This document shows, piece by piece, positions 12,575 to 22,221 of a DNA stretch of 64,000 nt; the stretch's first letter is position 1, and the number at the start of each line of letters is the position of its first letter. The position numbers and the translations under genes are program-made. The DNA is from Planctomycetota bacterium (GTDB lineage: Bacteria; Planctomycetota; Phycisphaerae; UBA1845): assembly GCA_038043285.1 (NCBI GenBank), contig JBBTCJ010000022.1, forward strand, positions 15,539 to 79,538, written 5' to 3'. Below the pieces are notes generated by a model. The model was not told where the DNA came from. It made no database searches and was given only the letters and a program-made list of their open reading frames with translations.

Positions 12575-13786
12575 TTGACCCCCCGTCGGACAACGCGAAA
12601 GGTTATGGTCGGCGGCGTGCCCGTTGGCGGGGGTGCACCGGTGGCCATCCAGTCCATGACCAGCACTTACACCCATGACGTGGACGCCACCGTGCGGCAG
12701 ATCCGACAGTTGGCCGAGGCGGGTTGTGATATCGTACGGGTTGCGGTTCCGGACCGGAAGGACACCGAAGCCCTTCCGGCGATCCTCGATCAGTCACCCG
12801 TCCCGATCGTCGCGGACGTGCATTTCCACTATGAACGGGCGCTCGAGGCGATCGAGGCCGGCGTGCACAAGATTCGCTTGAACCCGGGCAACATCAAGGA
12901 CCGCGGGGAAGTCGACCGCGTCATCCGTGCGTGCCGCGAGCGCCGCATCCCCATCCGCGTCGGTGTCAACGAGGGCAGCGTCGTCGAACGCCGGGACAAG
13001 GAACTTCGCGGAGCGCAGATGGCCGACCTGGCGGTCGATCGCCGTGCGAGCCTGGTCCGGTTGATGGTCCAGACGCTGGAGCACTACCTGCGCATCTTCG
13101 ACGAGAACGACTTCCACGACGTCGTCCTGGCCGCCAAGAGCATCGACGCGGGACTGGTGATCGACGCCTACCGCGCGATCAGCGAGCGGTTTGATTTTCC
13201 CTTGCACCTGGGCGTGACCCACGCCGGTCCGCCGGAGACGGGGCGCATCCGCTCGATCGCCGCGCTGGGTGCGCTGCTGGCGAGCGGGATCGGCGACACC
13301 ATCCGCATCTCCTACGCCGCCGATCCCATTTTCGAGGTCGAGGACGCCAAGGAACTCCTCTGTTCGTTGGGGCTTCGCAACCGCGTCGAACCGGAATTGA
13401 TCGCCTGCCCCACCTGCGGGCGAATCGAAATCGATCTCATCAAACTGGTGGCCGAGGTGCGACAAAAACTCGCCACGATCAAGACGCCGGTGAAGGTCGC
13501 GGTGATGGGCTGCGTGGTCAACGGTCCGGGCGAAGCCGAAGGCGCCGACGTGGCCGTCTTCGCCGGCAAGGGGCGGGGGATCATCTACGTTCGGGGCGAG
13601 CAGAAGCGGACCGTGACCGAGGCGGAGATGCTCGACGCCCTGTACGAGGAAGCGGTGGCCTTTGCCGCCCGCGTCGAACGCGGTGAGGTCGCGCTCTCGG
13701 CGGGGCGAGTGAACATCGTGCCGCCGGATCCGTTGCCGAGGAGGGATGGGACGATCCCGTTGACGGTTGGCGTCCGACGGCGATAG
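12575..13786 (+). CDS. ispG: 4-hydroxy-3-methylbut-2-enyl diphosphate synthase
   Basis: Motifs are 'VGGGAPVAIQSMTSTYTHDVDATVRQIRQLAEAGCDIVRVAVP' and the cluster cysteines 'CPTCGR...GCVVNGPGEA'. Confidence 0.95.
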   Translation: MTPRRTTRKVMVGGVPVGGGAPVAIQSMTSTYTHDVDATVRQIRQLAEAGCDIVRVAVPDRKDTEALPAILDQSPVPIVADVHFHYERALEAIEAGVHKIRLNPGNIKDRGEVDRVIRACRERRIPIRVGVNEGSVVERRDKELRGAQMADLAVDRRASLVRLMVQTLEHYLRIFDENDFHDVVLAAKSIDAGLVIDAYRAISERFDFPLHLGVTHAGPPETGRIRSIAALGALLASGIGDTIRISYAADPIFEVEDAKELLCSLGLRNRVEPELIACPTCGRIEIDLIKLVAEVRQKLATIKTPVKVAVMGCVVNGPGEAEGADVAVFAGKGRGIIYVRGEQKRTVTEAEMLDALYEEAVAFAARVERGEVALSAGRVNIVPPDPLPRRDGTIPLTVGVRRR

Positions 13787-13797
13787 TCTCCACGCAT

Positions 13798-14991
13798 ATG
13801 TTTCTGTCCGATGATGAGCTGAGGCAGTTCGCGCACGGGCAGGAAAGCGGTCGCGTCGAACGCAAGGGATCGCTGAGTGACCGTGAACAGATCAAAAAAA
13901 CCATCTGTGCATTCGCAAACGATTTGGCCGACTGCCGGAAGCCCGGCATCCTGCTCATCGGTCTCGACGATGGCGGGTCTTGCGCTGGGTTGAAGCCGTC
14001 GGAAGCGTCCATACGCACAATCGTGGATTTCCGTGGCGAGGGGAACCTTCTCCCGCTCCCGACGTTCTGCGTCGAGTGGCGCCGGATTGACTCATGCGAC
14101 GTACTCGTCGTTCAGGTTGAACCATCCGCGGTTCCGCCGGTGCGCCTACGGGGCCGGGTTTGGGTTCGGATTGGTCCGACGGTTCGTGCAGCGACGCCCG
14201 AGGAGGAAAAACGACTTTCTGAAAGGCGCCGATGGCACGACTTGCCGTTTGACCATCAACCGATCGATGCGGCATCACCGTCCGATCTTGATATCCGTTT
14301 GTTCGAGGGGGTTTATTTGCCCGGTGCGATTGACCGAGAGGTGCTCGAGGCGAACCAGCGATCGTCCGTCGAGCAGCTCGCATCGCTACGGTTTTTGACC
14401 TCCAACGGGAGGCCCACGGTTGCGGGAATTCTTGTACTCGGAAAGGATCCGAGGCAATGGGTGCCTGCCGCATACGTGCAGTTTGCTAGATTCGCCGGAA
14501 CGGAGATTTCCGACGACGTACAAGACCAGAAGGAACTCTTTGGACCTATCCCTACGTTGATGCAAATGATGGAGGAGACCCTGGCGGTCAACATACGGAT
14601 TGCGACGCAGATCGGCGGAGGAGTCGTCGAAAGTCGGAACCCGGATTATCCGGTGGACGCGTTACGTCAGTTGGTGAGGAACGCCGTCATGCACCGCGCC
14701 TACGAGGGTACGCATGCGCCAGTGCGCGTTCACTGGTTCGCTGATCGAATCGAGATCTACAATCCAGGAGGACCGTTCGGGATCGTAAACCGCGGCAACT
14801 TCGGGCAACCCGGCGTGACGGACTACCGGAATCCGGTTCTTGCCGAGGCGATGAAGGTTCTGGGGTACGTCCAGCGTTTCGGCGCGGGGATTCCGATCGC
14901 AAGGAGGGAACTGGAGAGAAACCGGAACCCAGCGCCTGAGTTCTTCGTGGAAGCTGAACACGTCCTGGTCACGGTTCGCAAACAGCCATGA
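13798..14991 (+). CDS. Schlafen/AlbA_2-domain protein with a C-terminal HATPase_c_4/wHTH ('divergent AAA / RecG-like' family)
   Basis: The N-terminus is 'ESGRVERKGSL...ICAFANDLA...GILLIGLDDGG' (AlbA_2-like). The C-terminus is 'LRQLVRNAVMHRAY...IEIYNPGG...YRNPVLAEAMKVLGYVQRFGAGI'. It starts 11 nt after ispG, and the local sequence is AT-richer than the flanks. Confidence 0.8.
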   Translation: MFLSDDELRQFAHGQESGRVERKGSLSDREQIKKTICAFANDLADCRKPGILLIGLDDGGSCAGLKPSEASIRTIVDFRGEGNLLPLPTFCVEWRRIDSCDVLVVQVEPSAVPPVRLRGRVWVRIGPTVRAATPEEEKRLSERRRWHDLPFDHQPIDAASPSDLDIRLFEGVYLPGAIDREVLEANQRSSVEQLASLRFLTSNGRPTVAGILVLGKDPRQWVPAAYVQFARFAGTEISDDVQDQKELFGPIPTLMQMMEETLAVNIRIATQIGGGVVESRNPDYPVDALRQLVRNAVMHRAYEGTHAPVRVHWFADRIEIYNPGGPFGIVNRGNFGQPGVTDYRNPVLAEAMKVLGYVQRFGAGIPIARRELERNRNPAPEFFVEAEHVLVTVRKQP

Positions 14992-15995
14992 AAGCGATCG
15001 CCTTCTTTAACAACAAAGGTGGAGTGGGAAAGACCTCGCTTGTTTACCATCTGGCGTGGATGTTCTCGGATTTGGGCGTGCGAATTGTCGCCGCCGACCT
15101 TGATCCACAGGCCAACCTCACCTCGATGTTCCTCAATGAAGACAAATTGGAGAAGCTTTGGCCGGATTCCGACCACGACTTTACGGCGCTCGGTTCGGTT
15201 GCTCCGATTCTCAAGGGGACCGGGGACATAGCGGATCCACATGTCGAGGAAATCACGGAGAACCTTGGACTCATCGTCGGCGACCTGGGGCTCGCACGGT
15301 TCGAAGCAAAGTTGTCGGAGGCGTGGCCGAAATGCGTTGACCAAGACGAGTCGGCTTTCCGTGCCGTCTCTTCTTTCTATCGGATTCTCGTTTCCGCTTG
15401 CAAGAAACGCGATGCGGAGTGGGCGCTGATCGACGTGGGGCCGAACTTGGGCGCGCTCAATCGCTCAGCTGTTCTCGCCGCAGATTCGGTCGTCGTCCCC
15501 ATTGCCGCGGACTTGTACTCCTTACAGGGCTTGAAGAACCTCGGACCCACTCTGCGTGACTGGCGGAAGCAATGGAAGGACCGGCTCGAAAGGGTGCCGA
15601 AAGCCGACTCGCTGCCTCTTCCCCAAGGAGCGATGGAACCCGCAGGGTACATCGTCATGCAACACGCCGTTCGTCTGGATCGTCCGGTCAAAGCCTACGA
15701 GCGTTGGACACGGCGCATTCCAGAAACATATCGGCAGGAAATGCTTGAGGATCCTACGGAAGGAAGCCTTGACCCCAAGGACGACCCGGCCTGCCTTGCA
15801 TCGTTGAAGCACTATAGAAGCCTTATGCCGTTGGCCCAGGACGCGCTGAAGCCGATGTTTCAACTCAAGGCCGCGGATGGGGCTTTGGGAGCCCACGTAT
15901 CGGCGGTCCAGAGTTGCTACAATGATTTTAAATCGCTCGCCCTCAGGATAGCTAAGGTATGCGGGATTGAGGTACCGCGCTTCCACTCGCCCTAA
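14988..15995 (+). CDS. Orphan ParA/MinD-family ATPase with a ~120-aa C-terminal extension
   Basis: It has the deviant Walker A 'FNNKGGVGKTS' and 'DLDPQANLT'. Its start overlaps the upstream stop by 4 nt (ATGA). There is no parB-like gene nearby. Confidence 0.85.
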   Translation: MKAIAFFNNKGGVGKTSLVYHLAWMFSDLGVRIVAADLDPQANLTSMFLNEDKLEKLWPDSDHDFTALGSVAPILKGTGDIADPHVEEITENLGLIVGDLGLARFEAKLSEAWPKCVDQDESAFRAVSSFYRILVSACKKRDAEWALIDVGPNLGALNRSAVLAADSVVVPIAADLYSLQGLKNLGPTLRDWRKQWKDRLERVPKADSLPLPQGAMEPAGYIVMQHAVRLDRPVKAYERWTRRIPETYRQEMLEDPTEGSLDPKDDPACLASLKHYRSLMPLAQDALKPMFQLKAADGALGAHVSAVQSCYNDFKSLALRIAKVCGIEVPRFHSP

Positions 15996-16232
15996 GTCCC
16001 GTTGCCCGTTCATGTTGTCCGAGCGTGGTGCGCGACGGGTCTGGGCCGGAGTCGGCATGGTGCCCCGGAACCGATTTTCACCTGCTGGCGTGGTATTGAA
16101 CTTGCCTGTAAGGTGAGGGTCGAAGGCGGTTCGGTGGGGCGTGGTCAGCACCAAACCGCCGGACGGAAGCGCGCGATCCGCGCCCCAAGCGAGGCTCCGC
16201 GCCGTGGGCCGAGTTACCCATAGGTAAAACGC

Positions 16233-17387
16233 ATGATACTAGCCGTTCCGAAAGAGGTCGTTGACGGTGAACGACGCGTCGCGTTGGTCCCGGAATCGGT
16301 CAAGAAGCTGGTGAAGGCCGGGGCGGACGTGGTTCTGGAAGCCGGCGCGGGCGTCGCCTCCTATTTCTCCGACGACGACTACCAGGGCGCCGGAGCGACG
16401 ATCGAACCCGACGTGGTCAAGCTTCTGTCGGCCGCGGACTTCATCGCCAAAGTTCAACCTCCCGTGCACCATCCGGTCGCCGGTCGGCATGAAGTCGATC
16501 TGTTCCGCGAGGGGGCGGCGTTTCTGACGACCCTCTATCCGACCCGCAACCTCGACGCGGTCCGCCGGCTGGCGGCCCGCCGGATCACCAGTTTCGCAGC
16601 CGACTGCATCCCGCGAACGACGCGGGCCCAGACCATGGACGTGCTGTCGTCGATGGCCAACATCGCCGGGTACAAGGGCGTCATCCTCGCCGCCGATCAG
16701 CTCGCCAAATACTTCCCCATGTTCATGACCGCTGCCGGAACGGTTTTTCAGGCCAAGGTGTTCGTCATCGGGGCGGGGGTCGCGGGGTTGCAGGCGATCG
16801 CCACCGCCAAGCGCCTCGGCGCGACGGTGACGGCCACCGACACCCGACCGGTCGTCAGGGAACAGGTGGAAAGCGTCGGCGGGAAGTTCGTTGGGGTAGA
16901 TGCATCGGAGAGTGCTCAAGACGCGGGCGGATACGCGAAGGAACTCTCCAAGGATTTCTATGATAAACAAGCGAAGTTGATTTCCGACCAGTGCGCAATC
17001 AACGACGTGGTGGTGACCACGGCGCTCATCGGCGGGGTGAAGGCGCCGAAACTGATCACCGAGGAGATGGTTCGGCGCATGAAGCCGGGATCGGTGCTCA
17101 TCGACCTGGCCGCCGAGGGCGGCGGCAACTGCGTGCTCAGCGAGCCGGGCAAGATGGTCGAGAAGCACAACGTCAAGATCTGCGCGCCGCTGAACCTCCC
17201 GTCGCAAATGCCGCTGCACGCCAGCACCCTGTACTCGCGCAACGTGACGTCGTTTCTGACCGCGTTTCTGAAGGACAAGGCCTTCAACCTCGATTGGAAC
17301 GACGAGATTCTCAAAGGCGCCGTCATTACCCATTTTGGAGAGGTCATGCACGGTCCGACGAAGGACGCGTTGTCGAAGGCGACCTGA
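16233..17387 (+). CDS. pntAA: NAD(P) transhydrogenase alpha subunit, part 1
   Basis: It has the AlaDH/PNT fold, with 'VFVIGAGVAGLQAIATAKRLGA' and 'DLAAEGGGNC'. Confidence 0.95.
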   Translation: MILAVPKEVVDGERRVALVPESVKKLVKAGADVVLEAGAGVASYFSDDDYQGAGATIEPDVVKLLSAADFIAKVQPPVHHPVAGRHEVDLFREGAAFLTTLYPTRNLDAVRRLAARRITSFAADCIPRTTRAQTMDVLSSMANIAGYKGVILAADQLAKYFPMFMTAAGTVFQAKVFVIGAGVAGLQAIATAKRLGATVTATDTRPVVREQVESVGGKFVGVDASESAQDAGGYAKELSKDFYDKQAKLISDQCAINDVVVTTALIGGVKAPKLITEEMVRRMKPGSVLIDLAAEGGGNCVLSEPGKMVEKHNVKICAPLNLPSQMPLHASTLYSRNVTSFLTAFLKDKAFNLDWNDEILKGAVITHFGEVMHGPTKDALSKAT

Positions 17388-19650: not shown

Positions 19651-22221
19651 CTATGGCTTCTGCGAAGGTGATTTCGGCGCCCGGGATTGCTCCTTGGCGA
19701 CAAGTTCCCTGTAATTGGCCAATCGCGTGACGAACTCATGGTTGTGCGGAAAGAGCGCCACGGCAAGTTCTTGAGACTCCACCGCCTTTTCGTTGTTGCC
19801 GCTGAGGTGATACGCCGCGGCAAGCGTGTCGAGCAGGGGTCCGTTTTTCCCCTTGGAAATTTCGAGCGCCTTTTGGGCGAACGTAAGCGCGGTGCCCACC
19901 GAGGACGGGTCTTGCGAAGCGCAGTCCAGCAGGCACTGCGCGTACCACGCCATAGCGTACTCACTAGCGTTCGGACGTTTCACAGCCTCTCGCCGAATCT
20001 CCAGGGCCTCGTCACACGCGACCCGGGCTGCCTCGTGCTGCCCCGTGCCCTGCAGCACCAGCGCCAGTTCGACAAGACTCGAACCCAACTGCAGGGAACC
20101 GCCTCCGTCTTTCTTCCGACTGCACGCAACGGCTTCATGGGCCAAGCGTTCGGCGGACTTCAAGTCACCTTTGGCGCGACAGAGTCTGGTCATGACCCTC
20201 AACGTAACAGGCGCCCATGGGTGCTCATTGCGGTACACGTTTCTCCAAAACTCGAGTGCTTCACGAAGGAGCGGTTCGGCTTTGTCGTAATCACCTTTTT
20301 CGAAAAGCAGCAGCCCATAGAAGTGCAGGGACATGGTGAAATCTAGTAGACGGTCTCCCGGCAGCCTACGGTAAATCGCACACCCTTCTTCATACAACGG
20401 TTCCGCGTTGCGGTAGTCGCCACTAAGGTACAGCGATTGAGCCAGGGTAATCAGGGCATCGGCAACGTCGTGGTGTTCCCTTCCGTGCAATTTAAGCCGG
20501 ATGTCCAGCACCTCGCGGGCGGCTTGGAGCATGGCAGCATGGTCTTGGCTAATCATGACATTACCGATGCCCATCAGACTGTTTGCAACGTCGGCATGCA
20601 CGTTCCCATACAGCTTTCGGCGAACGTCGAGCGATTCCCTGAGGAGCGCTTCAGCGCCCTTTTGATCGCCCTTGTCTTGGGTAAGGAACCATCCCAAGTG
20701 ATAAAGGCTATCCGCGCGCTCGGGGTGGTCGCTCGGGAGCTCGCGATTGCGGATTTCCAGGCCCGCGCGGAGATGTCGCTCGGCATTGTCGATTTGGCCC
20801 ATAGACTGATAGGTGGTTCCAATCGTCGTATGTAGCGCAGCCTCTACGAGTGGTTGATCCTTGAACACCGTGGAGACCTCCGCCGCCACTTTGTCGATCA
20901 TTTCTCGGACGGTGATGTTCGGGCCGGGGCCTTGGTTGGGGTCGGCCGAGCGGAGCATGGTGCTGAGGTATGCGGTCACGGCCCGAGCGGTATCGCGTTC
21001 ACGGGCTTTCTCATCTCTAGCACGTTCGGCGCGGACGTACAGCGACGTGCTGACGATGATTCCCGCGATAAGAACCACAAACACCGCCGCCAGGGAGGCG
21101 ACGACGGCCTTGTTGCGGCGAGCGAAGACGCGAAGTTGGTAAATGATGCTCGCCCGGCGGGCGAGGATGGCTTCGCCCGTCAGATAGCGATGGATGTCGT
21201 GGGCGAACTCGCCGGCTGATTGGTAGCGGCGATCGCGATCCTTCTCCAGGGCCTTGAAGACAATGGTCTCCACGTCGCCGCGCAGGGACTTGTCCACGGT
21301 GCTCAGCTTGGAGGGCTGCTGCTCACGAATCATCCGCGTCCCGTCGAAGATTTTCGAGCGGCTCACCTCGTAGGGCAGCTTGCCGGAGAGCATTTCGTAC
21401 AAAACCACGCCCAGGGCGTAGACGTCGCTGCGGGTGTCGATGTCCTGCGGGTCGCCCTCGCACTGTTCCGGACTCATGTATTGCAGCGTGCCCACGAGTT
21501 GCCCGACGTCGGTTTGCAGGGTGGTCACGGCCAAGTCCGAGTCCGTGCCGCGAGCCACCCCGAAGTCGATGATCTTCACCTGCCCGAGACCCCCGCTTCC
21601 CCCCCTGCTAAGGGGGAGTGGGGAGGGGTCGGCGGTCACCAGAACGTTCCCCGGTTTGAGGTCTCGATGGATGATGCCCTTCTGGTGGCCGTGGTGGACG
21701 GCGTCGCAGACCTGGGTGAACAGCTCCAACCGCGGCCGCATGCCGAGCTTCTTCTCGTCCGCGTACGAGGTGATGGACTTGGCGTTGGGAATGTACTCCA
21801 TGGCGAAGTAGGGCACGGCTTCGGGGACAAATGCGGCATTGCTGGGGGCGTCCGCTCGCTTTGCACTCGCGGCTCGTGCTTCGCGCTCGCGGGTCGGATC
21901 GGGAACATATGTCCCGGCTTCGTAGATCTGGGCGATGCCCGGATGACGCAAGCGGGCGAGGATCTGGGCCTCGTATTCAAAGCGCCGCAGGGCCGATTTC
22001 GACGCGATGCCCTGCTTCATGACCTTGACCGCCACGACGCGACGGGGGTTGTCCTGCGTGGCTTCGTAGACCGTACCCATTCCCCCCGAGGCGATGACCC
22101 GCTTGACGTGATACCGTCCGATCCGTTCCGGAATGCGCGAGGAAATGGGGACAGGTGGCGGAGCGACGGTTTCGGCGAGGCGCGGGTCGGGAGGGTGTTG
22201 ATCCAGACTCTGATCGGTCAT
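19651..22221 (-). CDS. Ser/Thr protein kinase with a TM segment and a long C-terminal TPR array
   Basis: Hanks motifs are 'GGMGTVYEA', 'AVKV', 'HRDLKPGNVLV', 'DFG' and 'SPEQ'. The TM segment is 'VVASLAAVFVVLIAGIIV', followed by multiple TPR-like repeats. Confidence 0.9.
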   Translation of the reverse strand: MTDQSLDQHPPDPRLAETVAPPPVPISSRIPERIGRYHVKRVIASGGMGTVYEATQDNPRRVVAVKVMKQGIASKSALRRFEYEAQILARLRHPGIAQIYEAGTYVPDPTREREARAASAKRADAPSNAAFVPEAVPYFAMEYIPNAKSITSYADEKKLGMRPRLELFTQVCDAVHHGHQKGIIHRDLKPGNVLVTADPSPLPLSRGGSGGLGQVKIIDFGVARGTDSDLAVTTLQTDVGQLVGTLQYMSPEQCEGDPQDIDTRSDVYALGVVLYEMLSGKLPYEVSRSKIFDGTRMIREQQPSKLSTVDKSLRGDVETIVFKALEKDRDRRYQSAGEFAHDIHRYLTGEAILARRASIIYQLRVFARRNKAVVASLAAVFVVLIAGIIVSTSLYVRAERARDEKARERDTARAVTAYLSTMLRSADPNQGPGPNITVREMIDKVAAEVSTVFKDQPLVEAALHTTIGTTYQSMGQIDNAERHLRAGLEIRNRELPSDHPERADSLYHLGWFLTQDKGDQKGAEALLRESLDVRRKLYGNVHADVANSLMGIGNVMISQDHAAMLQAAREVLDIRLKLHGREHHDVADALITLAQSLYLSGDYRNAEPLYEEGCAIYRRLPGDRLLDFTMSLHFYGLLLFEKGDYDKAEPLLREALEFWRNVYRNEHPWAPVTLRVMTRLCRAKGDLKSAERLAHEAVACSRKKDGGGSLQLGSSLVELALVLQGTGQHEAARVACDEALEIRREAVKRPNASEYAMAWYAQCLLDCASQDPSSVGTALTFAQKALEISKGKNGPLLDTLAAAYHLSGNNEKAVESQELAVALFPHNHEFVTRLANYRELVAKEQSRAPKSPSQKP
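21589..21630. repeat. GC-rich palindromic element inserted in-frame in the kinase catalytic domain
   Basis: The sequence ccccgcttccccccctgctaagggggagtggggaggggtc encodes 'PSPLPLSRGGSGGL', located between HRDLKPGN and DFG. Confidence 0.55.

Follow-up and report, generated by a model that had tools for sequence, protein, structure and literature searches.

The stretch of DNA analysed here (the window) comprises 64,000 nucleotides (nt) of a member of the Planctomycetota (class Phycisphaerae, lineage UBA1845; GenBank assembly GCA_038043285.1, contig JBBTCJ010000022.1, positions 15,539 to 79,538). On its forward strand, between ispG and pntAA, lie the two overlapping genes that are the subject of this work. 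Gene 1 (397 amino acids, aa) codes for a protein that combines a Schlafen nuclease domain of the AlbA_2 type with a GHKL ATPase domain, and gene 2 (335 aa) codes for an ATPase of the ParA/MinD fold (Table 1). The combination found in gene 1 has been named the "Schlatpase" supradomain and is present in 60,692 prokaryotic proteins, most of them small and stand-alone, with or without a C-terminal helix-turn-helix (HTH) (bioRxiv 10.64898/2026.05.29.728809). The original prediction, made from the letters of the sequence, had described this pair of open reading frames (ORFs) with an ATGA overlap and had seen in it a candidate defence or addiction module; the ORF pair and the overlap are both borne out by the ORF list and the sequence.

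Table 1. Coordinates of the two-gene cassette, its motifs and its borders in the window.
Feature	Position	Strand	Description
ispG stop to gene 1 start, spacer	13787..13797	+	11 nt; left edge of the low-GC segment
Gene 1	13798..14991	+	Stand-alone minimal Schlatpase (Schlafen/AlbA_2 nuclease domain and GHKL ATPase domain); predicted toxic tRNase effector
Schlafen nuclease signature	13843..13920	+	E16-x4-E21-x-K23 (13843-13866) and C37-A-F-A-N41 "Schlafen box" (13906-13920)
GHKL (Bergerat-fold) ATP-binding domain	14647..14973	+	Mg-binding Asn N295, glycine boxes P323-G-G and G362/G364 conserved
Subtype-defining positions	K23 13864-13866; Q291 14668-14670	+	Compared over loci L001-L091
Gene 1/gene 2 junction	14988..14991	+	CC-ATGA-AA; TGA stop of gene 1 overlaps ATG of gene 2 (translational coupling)
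Gene 2	14988..15995	+	ATPase of the ParA/MinD fold with a deviant Walker A, 3PG5 subfamily; predicted to act on gene 1 as an antitoxin-like switch (regulator or sensor)
Deviant Walker A	15012..15035	+	N9-K10-G-G-V-G-K15-T16; signature Lys K10, P-loop Lys K15
Family-specific C-terminal motif	15792..15899	+	C269-L..LK.YRSLMP.AQ...KP.F.LK..DGA.G.H303; invariant columns in gene 2 alignment A1
Gene 2 to pntAA, spacer	15996..16232	+	237 nt; GC back to about 0.65

The two genes are a strictly linked, co-evolving partnership. When one genome of each species was scanned with a profile of the gene 2 family, 80 loci at 52-66% identity were obtained, spanning more than 20 phyla (among them Planctomycetota, Verrucomicrobiota, Cyanobacteriota, Acidobacteriota, Actinomycetota, Chloroflexota, Nitrospirota, Fusobacteriota and Spirochaetota), and seven metagenome loci were added to them. 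In all of these 87 loci a homolog of gene 1 was found immediately upstream and on the same strand, and in the three loci found through gene 1 the ParA-like gene was downstream (3/3), so that the pair is conserved as neighbours in other genomes, as the idea of a two-gene module had implied. The stop and start codons overlap by 4 nt in 80 of 89 loci and by 1 nt in two more, and no third conserved gene was found beside the pair in the 80 loci. Identity between loci in the one protein correlates with that in the other (Mantel r=0.59, matched by 0 of 999 permutations), and close homologs of each number in the thousands. There is also a natural in-frame fusion, P0253, which joins SLFN_AlbA_2, HATPase_c_4 and AAA_31 through a linker of about 11 aa. 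A second candidate Schlatpase-ParA fusion, P0369, was discarded; its middle part is Arg/Pro-rich and out of frame and its Walker A degenerate, as in a frameshifted pseudogene or an error. Among the Schlatpases of viral contigs, the partner accompanies only the short-form relative at 48% identity, and is missing beside the long forms, relatives at 40% and 22-31%.

Gene 1 belongs to a known and recently characterised kind of protein, the Schlatpases. Pfam placed SLFN_AlbA_2 (PF04326) at aa 16-132 (E=1.3e-13; 51.9 bits against a gathering cut-off of 25.3) and HATPase_c_4 (PF13749) at aa 307-392 (E=6e-17; 61.9 bits, cut-off 26), just the architecture that the original prediction had recognised. 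It had also seen a C-terminal winged HTH (wHTH), and this part did not stand, the protein stopping right after the GHKL domain. Linked Schlatpases as a clade have a median length of 396 aa and C-terminal extensions of 0-5 aa, while the unlinked ones from viral contigs were 64-144 residues longer in all cases (15/15). The model PDLC02394 of PADLOC, made for prokaryotic Argonautes (pAgo), matches aa 14-392 with its positions 33-433, the Schlatpase N-terminus of the Schlafen-Argonaute fusions (SLFN-pAgo). With the AlphaFold2 (AF2) model of gene 1 (predicted local distance difference test, pLDDT, of 71 overall and 80-93 in the Schlafen half), Foldseek retrieved 3LMM (E=1.6e-16), the nuclease domains of SLFN14, SLFN11, SLFN12, SLFN13 and SLFN5, the tRNase SAMD9 and the GHKL domains of PDK.

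The residues expected of a working Schlafen nuclease are in place. The motif reads E16-SGRV-E21-R-K23 and is followed by a box in which Cys replaces the Ser of the SAFAN consensus; both are invariant among the close homologs (gene 1 alignment A2), and E16, E21 and N41 are kept in 77/77 aligned linked homologs. In characterised relatives the E-x4-(D/E)-x-K and SAFAN motifs are required for tRNA cleavage and defence (PMC13056530; bioRxiv 10.64898/2026.05.29.728809), D32 of the first motif being essential (bioRxiv 10.64898/2026.05.29.728809). The GHKL domain presents a different picture, with its catalytic Glu replaced by Gln291, a residue aligned by HMMER with the Glu of "vrEamlNAmiHRdw" in 3LMM. 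In RzAgo, ATP hydrolysis needs the corresponding GHKL residue E314 and ATP binding does not (bioRxiv 10.64898/2026.05.29.728809). Judging from these residues, the GHKL domain of gene 1 is likely to bind ATP, and its capacity for hydrolysis is doubtful.

When the comparison was extended to all linked homologs, these split into two subtypes that are the reciprocal of each other, one with K23 and Q291 (40 loci, the window among them) and one with T23 and E291 (33 loci), mixed combinations being found in only two. Of the 84 aligned linked homologs, 46 have Q and 38 have E at position 291; in the unlinked Schlatpases it is E in 15 of 15. Each subtype has therefore one of the two catalytic signatures altered, either the Lys of the nuclease or the Glu of the GHKL domain. 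An invariant Q291 had been considered as a hallmark of every linked Schlatpase and was rejected, as it marks only one of the two subtypes. The ParA partner is nearly alike across them, with 60% identity within subtypes against 58% between.

Gene 2 belongs to a ParA subfamily that is structurally solved and functionally uncharacterised. Pfam recognised AAA_31 at aa 1-201 (E=8e-29), a model that describes only the first two thirds of the ParA fold, plus a CbiA match. The deviant Walker A (KGGVGKT) reported in the original prediction is present; K10 is found in 88/89 and K15 in 85/89 loci, and the aspartates D37/D39 of Walker A' and D149 of Walker B in 89/89. It is on these Walker A, A' and B residues that ParA/MinD proteins depend for hydrolysis and for dimerisation as an ATP sandwich. 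Because they are essentially invariant, gene 2 looks like a working ATP-dimer switch. The mean column identity of the family is 72% across phyla. A separate C-terminal domain of about 120 aa, which had also been proposed for gene 2, was rejected. The AF2 model (pLDDT 89, predicted TM-score 0.90) is a single compact ParA fold, and the Foldseek alignments of its 335 aa to Soj chains of 243-264 aa cover 324-330 columns. For this reason we regard the surplus over Soj, about 80 residues, as distributed insertions, and the C-terminus as the canonical ParA helices bearing a family-specific motif.

The nearest structure was 3PG5, both in Foldseek (E=1.7e-15, TM 0.71/0.76, with Soj, ParA and McdA next) and in a profile search of the PDB, where it aligned full length over positions 1-321 (E=1.6e-34, 122 bits), against E=1.6e-14 and 57 bits for Soj. 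The scores for NCBIfam families of partition proteins stay well below their cut-offs (ParA_partition 56 of 180 bits, RepA 57 of 348, SopA 27 of 725). No ParB was coupled to the pair in any of the loci surveyed, and the matches to the parS consensus in the window were no more than expected by chance. An identity as Soj or another partition ATPase was rejected on these grounds, and the view that gene 2 is unlikely to be one, with neither ParB nor parS for partner, has held. From its residues, the ParA-like protein would be a catalytically intact ATPase and not a partition protein. As a side observation, the structures that best match gene 2 and gene 1, 3PG5 (DIP2308) and 3LMM (DIP2311), are uncharacterised proteins of Corynebacterium diphtheriae with locus tags only three apart. 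A remote counterpart of the pairing is possible in that species.

More distant relatives of gene 2 that can be aligned from end to end, at 24-38% identity, are common; there were 365 matches in IMG/VR, and 527 representative clusters were reached at E<=1e-30. We scanned 64 ORFs flanking paralogs borne by phages and prophages, including 53 downstream partners, and the genes tightly coupled downstream of these paralogs proved to be RelA_SpoT in 22 and SIR2_2 in 19 cases, with no ParB among the 64. The gene order varies, the effector being first with the Schlatpase and second with SIR2 and RelA/SpoT. A plasmid of Spirosoma carries an operon of a PDC-S28 helicase, a ParA-like gene and a ThsA-like SIR2. 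A fourth toxin is found in P0322 (545 aa, available as protein only), a fusion protein whose C-terminal part is a RES toxin domain and whose ParA-like domain has a degenerate Walker A (PHGAVGTT), without the P-loop lysines. The C-terminal motif of the family is retained nonetheless, and ATP turnover therefore seems dispensable in this lineage. The same motif is common to gene 2 and the SIR2-linked paralog L135 (30% identity, E=5e-48 in an end-to-end BLASTP), is shared with the RelA/SpoT-coupled paralogs and is kept in a lone paralog of an Escherichia coli prophage (26% identity, E=3e-33, likewise end to end). Lone full-length paralogs are found directly after a CI-type repressor in Salmonella phage ST160 (L090:3515-5068) and in a prophage of E. 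coli IHE3034 (L198:3126-5077), i.e. in the slot beside the repressor where P22-like and lambdoid prophages carry a moron. The one of ST160, a P22-like phage, is preceded by a DUF3024 protein that matches the PADLOC candidate PDC-S43. The ParA-like family is in this way a shared partner of interchangeable toxic domains, namely Schlatpase, SIR2, RelA/SpoT and RES.

The base composition sets the pair apart from its surroundings. Its guanine plus cytosine content (GC) is 0.582, against a window mean of 0.642 (standard deviation 0.017 in 2.2-kb windows), and it is the lowest-GC 2.2-kb stretch anywhere in the 64 kb. The GC at third codon positions (GC3) is 0.67 and 0.675 for the two genes, against 0.777 +/- 0.052 for the 40 ORFs of the window, among which both genes rank lowest in GC and in GC3. 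The low-GC two-gene feature is thus confirmed as real and not a product of chance. The three 120-nt samples counted by hand in the original prediction were exact when recomputed (0.542, 0.533 and 0.667), and horizontal acquisition, which it had deduced from them, agrees with the computed GC and GC3, both of which are extremes of the window.

The flanks are also those described at the outset. ispG (GcpE, E=3e-126) ends at 13786, which gives the predicted 11 nt to gene 1, and pntAA (AlaDh_PNT) starts at 16233, 237 nt after gene 2 where about 240 had been estimated. No terminator, repeat or att-like element was found in the 237-nt spacer. In the window there were neither direct or inverted repeats bracketing the pair nor an integrase, and no border DNA was conserved at the cassette edges in the 80 loci compared. 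No empty site came to light when the IspG, PntAA and gene 1 proteins were looked up by exact sequence; the copies returned were all strain-level ones of the same Hainich groundwater population, and all had the pair. The insertion boundaries are therefore drawn from composition alone. The promoter and terminator scans of the window gave nothing exceeding the shuffled expectation, sigma-70-like matches included; the one such match near the cassette (TTGACG-16-GATAGT, 13760-13787) is weak and lies across the stop codon of ispG. Transcription of the pair probably reads through from ispG, given the 11-nt spacer and no other promoter. Gaps of 60 nt or less to the upstream gene were found in 22 of the 47 loci in which this gene is co-directional.

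Two further observations concern the same region. In the assemblies L194 and L195 of this groundwater population (equivalent to window positions 13349-13743), 8-17 single-base indels occur at the 3' end of ispG only and alter the gene calls of ispG and gene 1. A disruption (pseudogenisation) of these genes was considered and set aside, the indels being most likely assembly errors, as they are scattered, 1 nt long and on contigs of about 6x coverage. On the other side, 2.3 kb beyond the pnt operon, the minus strand carries at 19651-22221 a Ser/Thr protein kinase of 856 aa fused to long arrays of tetratricopeptide repeats.

In the other genomes the direct neighbours of the pair, identified with crude ORF calling, are mostly unrelated housekeeping genes (gyrA, ribonucleotide reductase, uvrA, aminoacyl-tRNA synthetases, mutS, dnaA and similar). 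The flanks differ at nearly every locus, and the pair is in no conserved housekeeping operon. In cyanobacteria it was found repeatedly directly downstream of uvrA with a gap of 23-31 nt (L199:1052-6249, Nostoc; L200:979-6258, another 9-Mb genome), and two further UvrA neighbours appeared in the 75-locus survey. This adjacency could be due to a shared insertion site or to vertical inheritance within the group. Taken with the patchy distribution, of the kind left by horizontal gene transfer (HGT), and with the GC and GC3 anomaly, the unrelated flanks indicate that the pair behaves, in the window as elsewhere, as a bare, horizontally mobile cassette.

Such neighbours also bear on a function outside any conflict, for example as a nucleoid-positioned factor of RNA processing or regulation, or as a partition or positioning system, now degenerate, in which gene 1 would be the adaptor of the ParA-like ATPase. 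The usual task of ParA/MinD ATPases is to position cargo, the surroundings are mostly housekeeping genes with repeated uvrA adjacency in cyanobacteria, and database labels on relatives of gene 1 read "transcriptional regulator" or "RecG-like". We nevertheless give this explanation very little credence. The varying flanks, the HGT-like distribution and the anomalous composition do not fit it, gene 1 contains no HTH and the pair no ParB or parS, the nuclease motif is conserved, and the paralogs of gene 2 are coupled to toxins.

About 10% of the copies are embedded in recognisable defence loci of the Hma, BREX or AbiL-like kinds. The pair is found between HmaA and HmaB/HmaC, all of them full-length PADLOC matches, in 6 of about 75 unique loci; the HmaA helicase, HmaB methylase and HmaC ATPase are absent from the 64-kb window. 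In a contig of IMG/VR (3300043424_000947; L108:3755-8290), the Schlatpase and the ParA-like gene are followed by a full-length BREX PglZ (PADLOC PDLC02566, 934 bits), with an overlap of 4 nt between the ParA-like gene and PglZ. Two readings suggest themselves, a variant with three genes and an embedding in BREX. The pair was also found adjoining an AAA_21/RloB (AbiL-like) gene pair plus an integrase. At two loci (L201:1999-5164 and L202:1816-5166) the pair is intact and its Hma flanks are reduced to fragments, upstream to 187-248 aa of SNF2 and downstream to 76 aa of DUF1156. Here the cassette has outlived the surrounding defence system, and it is therefore a module in its own right and not a subunit of Hma or BREX. 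The location in Hma and BREX loci agrees with what has been described for Schlafen-HisKinase-wHTH RNases, which serve BREX and BREX-related (DUF499/DUF1156) systems as auxiliary effectors and are reported in this role from at least 1017 taxa (PMC12839542). As to whether the pair lies in defence islands, this is true of this tenth of the copies and does not hold for the majority, solitary among housekeeping genes. The idea of a defence or addiction role draws support from the Hma, BREX PglZ and AbiL-like embedding and from the toxin-coupled paralogs, for a function that we infer.

We believe, with somewhat better than even confidence, that the pair is a horizontally acquired two-component conflict module, acting in anti-phage abortive infection (Abi) or in the manner of a toxin-antitoxin (TA) system, in which a Schlatpase tRNase effector would be restrained or switched by a ParA-fold ATPase. 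Prokaryotic Schlafens have anti-phage tRNase activity (PMC13056530; bioRxiv 10.64898/2026.05.29.728809), and both tRNA cleavage and phage protection have been demonstrated for the relatives RorSlfn5, RzAgo and Cash. By analogy, gene 1 would be the toxic effector, its Schlafen domain cleaving tRNA, and its GHKL domain would upon ATP binding assemble the protein into an active oligomer, as it does in SLFN-pAgo (bioRxiv 10.64898/2026.05.29.728809). Gene 2, presumably made in fixed stoichiometry with gene 1 through translational coupling, would bind the Schlatpase as a nucleotide-dependent restraint or sensor switch, and would so supply in trans what the C-terminal wHTH or sensor domains give the unlinked Schlafens in cis. 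The putative trigger would be an infection that perturbs the ATP-dimer state of the ParA-like protein, candidates being a phage protein, the loss or change of DNA, or a change in the nucleotide pool. The changed state would then release or license the RNase and translation would stop, with protection against phage as the expected phenotype.

A closely related possibility is that of a selfish TA or addiction module with no anti-phage role, in which the Schlatpase would be the toxin and the ParA-like protein an antitoxin acting by binding, so that loss of the module kills or arrests the cell. The pair has much of the appearance of one, as an overlapping, promoter-poor two-gene cassette dispersed over many phyla and standing alone among housekeeping genes, with a patchy HGT-like distribution, kept where the flanking Hma decayed, and with paralogs that pair with the classic TA toxins RES, RelA/SpoT (toxSAS-like) and SIR2. 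However, an antitoxin of 335 aa with a fully conserved and catalytically competent ATPase site is atypical of type II systems, the in-frame fusions P0253 and P0322 do not fit an antitoxin that works by differential instability, and the embedding in Hma, BREX and AbiL-like loci, together with the prophage immunity slots, points to phage defence. We judge a purely selfish module rather unlikely, bearing in mind that TA and Abi roles are not mutually exclusive.

The role of gene 2 could also be the opposite of a restraint. In this case the ParA-like ATPase would be a positive factor of ATP-driven assembly or activation that dimerises on DNA or ATP and gathers the Schlatpase protomers, compensating for a hydrolysis-dead GHKL domain (Q291), and the nuclease alone would be inactive. 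The conserved active site of gene 2 would be explained, and the reciprocal degeneration of GHKL Glu and nuclease Lys suggests that ATPase work was re-partitioned. An NTPase is also needed for activity in many nuclease-plus-NTPase defence operons (bioRxiv 10.1101/2025.07.10.664194). Besides, GiPD474, a ParA/MinD/Soj-like AAA_31 protein of about 360 aa from a Gifsy prophage that gave broad phage resistance by experiment (PMC12724215), protects alone and has no separate effector. Against this, P0322 has kept the motif with a degenerate Walker A, which fits a binding or inhibitory role better, and the identity of the ParA partner hardly separates the Schlatpase subtypes, as the values of 60% and 58% given above indicate. 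An activator thus appears improbable to us. Over this and other roles we favour a restraining, antitoxin-like or sensor function of gene 2, because four unrelated toxins have their partner from this one family, in some cases by fusion, and in at least one of the fusions the P-loop lysines are gone and the motif is still there.

Several points weigh against a restrained tRNase effector of phage defence. Prokaryotic Schlafens (pSlfn) of the HisKinase type did not protect E. coli from the phage panel used, and only the fusions with DUF262 and Ig-like domains did (PMC13056530). In the subtype of the window the GHKL Glu has changed to Gln and in the sister subtype the nuclease Lys to Thr, so that each may have one activity changed, and it may therefore be wrong to carry the mechanism of RzAgo over directly. 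The AF2 model of gene 1 is of moderate confidence (pLDDT 71). About 90% of the copies, the one in the window included, are outside recognisable defence islands, and with housekeeping genes for neighbours guilt by association is consequently weak for the pair itself. Finally, no relative with at least 50% identity turned up on sequenced plasmids or phages, and the contigs of IMG/VR can include host flanks.

Prokaryotic Schlafens were shown to be anti-phage tRNases only in 2025-2026, and all those characterised have their sensor in cis. The class with a minimal histidine-kinase/GHKL domain, i.e. the Schlatpases with about 60,000 proteins, is the most abundant one, and no trigger or regulator had hitherto been known for it. 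The cassette described here offers to this class a defined, obligate and genetically separable partner, and regulation can therefore be tested directly on two genes, on point mutants and on the natural fusion. Through it the ParA/MinD-fold ATPases, textbook positioning machines, are also linked to immunity or toxin control across several effector families, a link that could explain the mode of action of the single-gene prophage defence protein GiPD474. We would go further only tentatively, with rather less than even confidence, and propose that the 3PG5-type ParA-fold ATPases are an unrecognised and widespread class of immune or toxin regulators, a nucleotide switch (possibly DNA-sensing) that has been recombined with at least four unrelated effectors and acts in trans, in cis or, in the immunity regions of prophages, alone. 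The Schlatpase/ParA pair would be its most conserved embodiment, and the K23T/E291Q subtypes two ways of dividing the control of ATPase and nuclease. The family would add a class of sensors or regulators to the pipelines of defence discovery, as both it and the pair are unmodelled in PADLOC v2.

With regard to the known defence systems, we searched the models of PADLOC-DB v2.0.0 (2023 release). For gene 1 the matches were confined to the Schlatpase parts of the pAgo/Aga models and for gene 2 to the Walker A segment of PDC-M28B, and no single defined system in this release was matched by both proteins or, likewise, by the paralogs. A ParA partner of a Schlafen, SIR2 or toxSAS protein was found nowhere in the literature searched (open-access papers and bioRxiv). 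Within this database and this literature the statement that no described system pairs the two families is upheld, and what is new here is the obligate Schlatpase/ParA pairing and the effector swapping of the ParA-like family.

Compared with the prokaryotic Schlafens, gene 1 has the same equipment, PF04326 and PF13749 with E-x4-E-x-K, a SAFAN-type box and the Asn and Gly boxes of GHKL, and its pair shares their HGT behaviour and their embedding in loci of the restriction-modification (RM) or BREX type. It differs from the Schlafens with fused sensors in being stand-alone, with no pAgo, Ig-like, DUF262, NACHT or wHTH domain, and from the Schlatpases of the SLFN-pAgo type in the Gln that its subtype has for the catalytic GHKL Glu. 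The papers on SLFN-pAgo and pSlfn mention no ParA partner, whereas gene 1 has an obligate separate ParA-fold ATPase. A similar comparison can be made with the auxiliary Schlafens of Hma ("BR type 1") and BREX. The pair occupies the same kind of place, between HmaA and HmaB/HmaC in six loci and overlapping PglZ in one, but those Schlafens carry a wHTH and no ParA partner (PMC12839542), and the copy of the window has no Hma or BREX nearby.

On the side of gene 2, ParA, Soj, MinD and 3PG5 have in common with it the fold, the signature Lys, the aspartates of Walker A' and B and the C-terminal helices. The difference from ParA, Soj and MinD lies in some 80 residues of family-specific insertions, in the distinctive C-terminal motif and in a nuclease/ATPase for partner where a ParB/parS, MinE or cargo partner would be expected. 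GiPD474, compared here by description only, is likewise a horizontally spread ParA-fold AAA_31 protein with GGVGKT, and its published prophage layout is that of the repressor-adjacent gene 2 paralogs in E. coli and P22-like phages. It acts, however, as a single gene, while gene 2 is always coupled to a Schlatpase.

As two overlapping adjacent genes with a solitary, mobile distribution, the pair resembles a type II TA module, for which the large partner with an intact ATPase site and the natural fusions would be atypical. CapRel-type fused toxSAS, Xre-RES and the Panacea-type antitoxins are TA-derived defence modules with swappable toxins. Their arrangement is the one found here, a single conserved partner with different toxic domains, sometimes fused and often borne by prophages, and their logic may be the same as well, a neutralising module that possibly doubles as sensor. 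The partner in our case is a large ParA-fold NTPase instead of a small HTH, DUF4065 or pseudo-ZFD protein.

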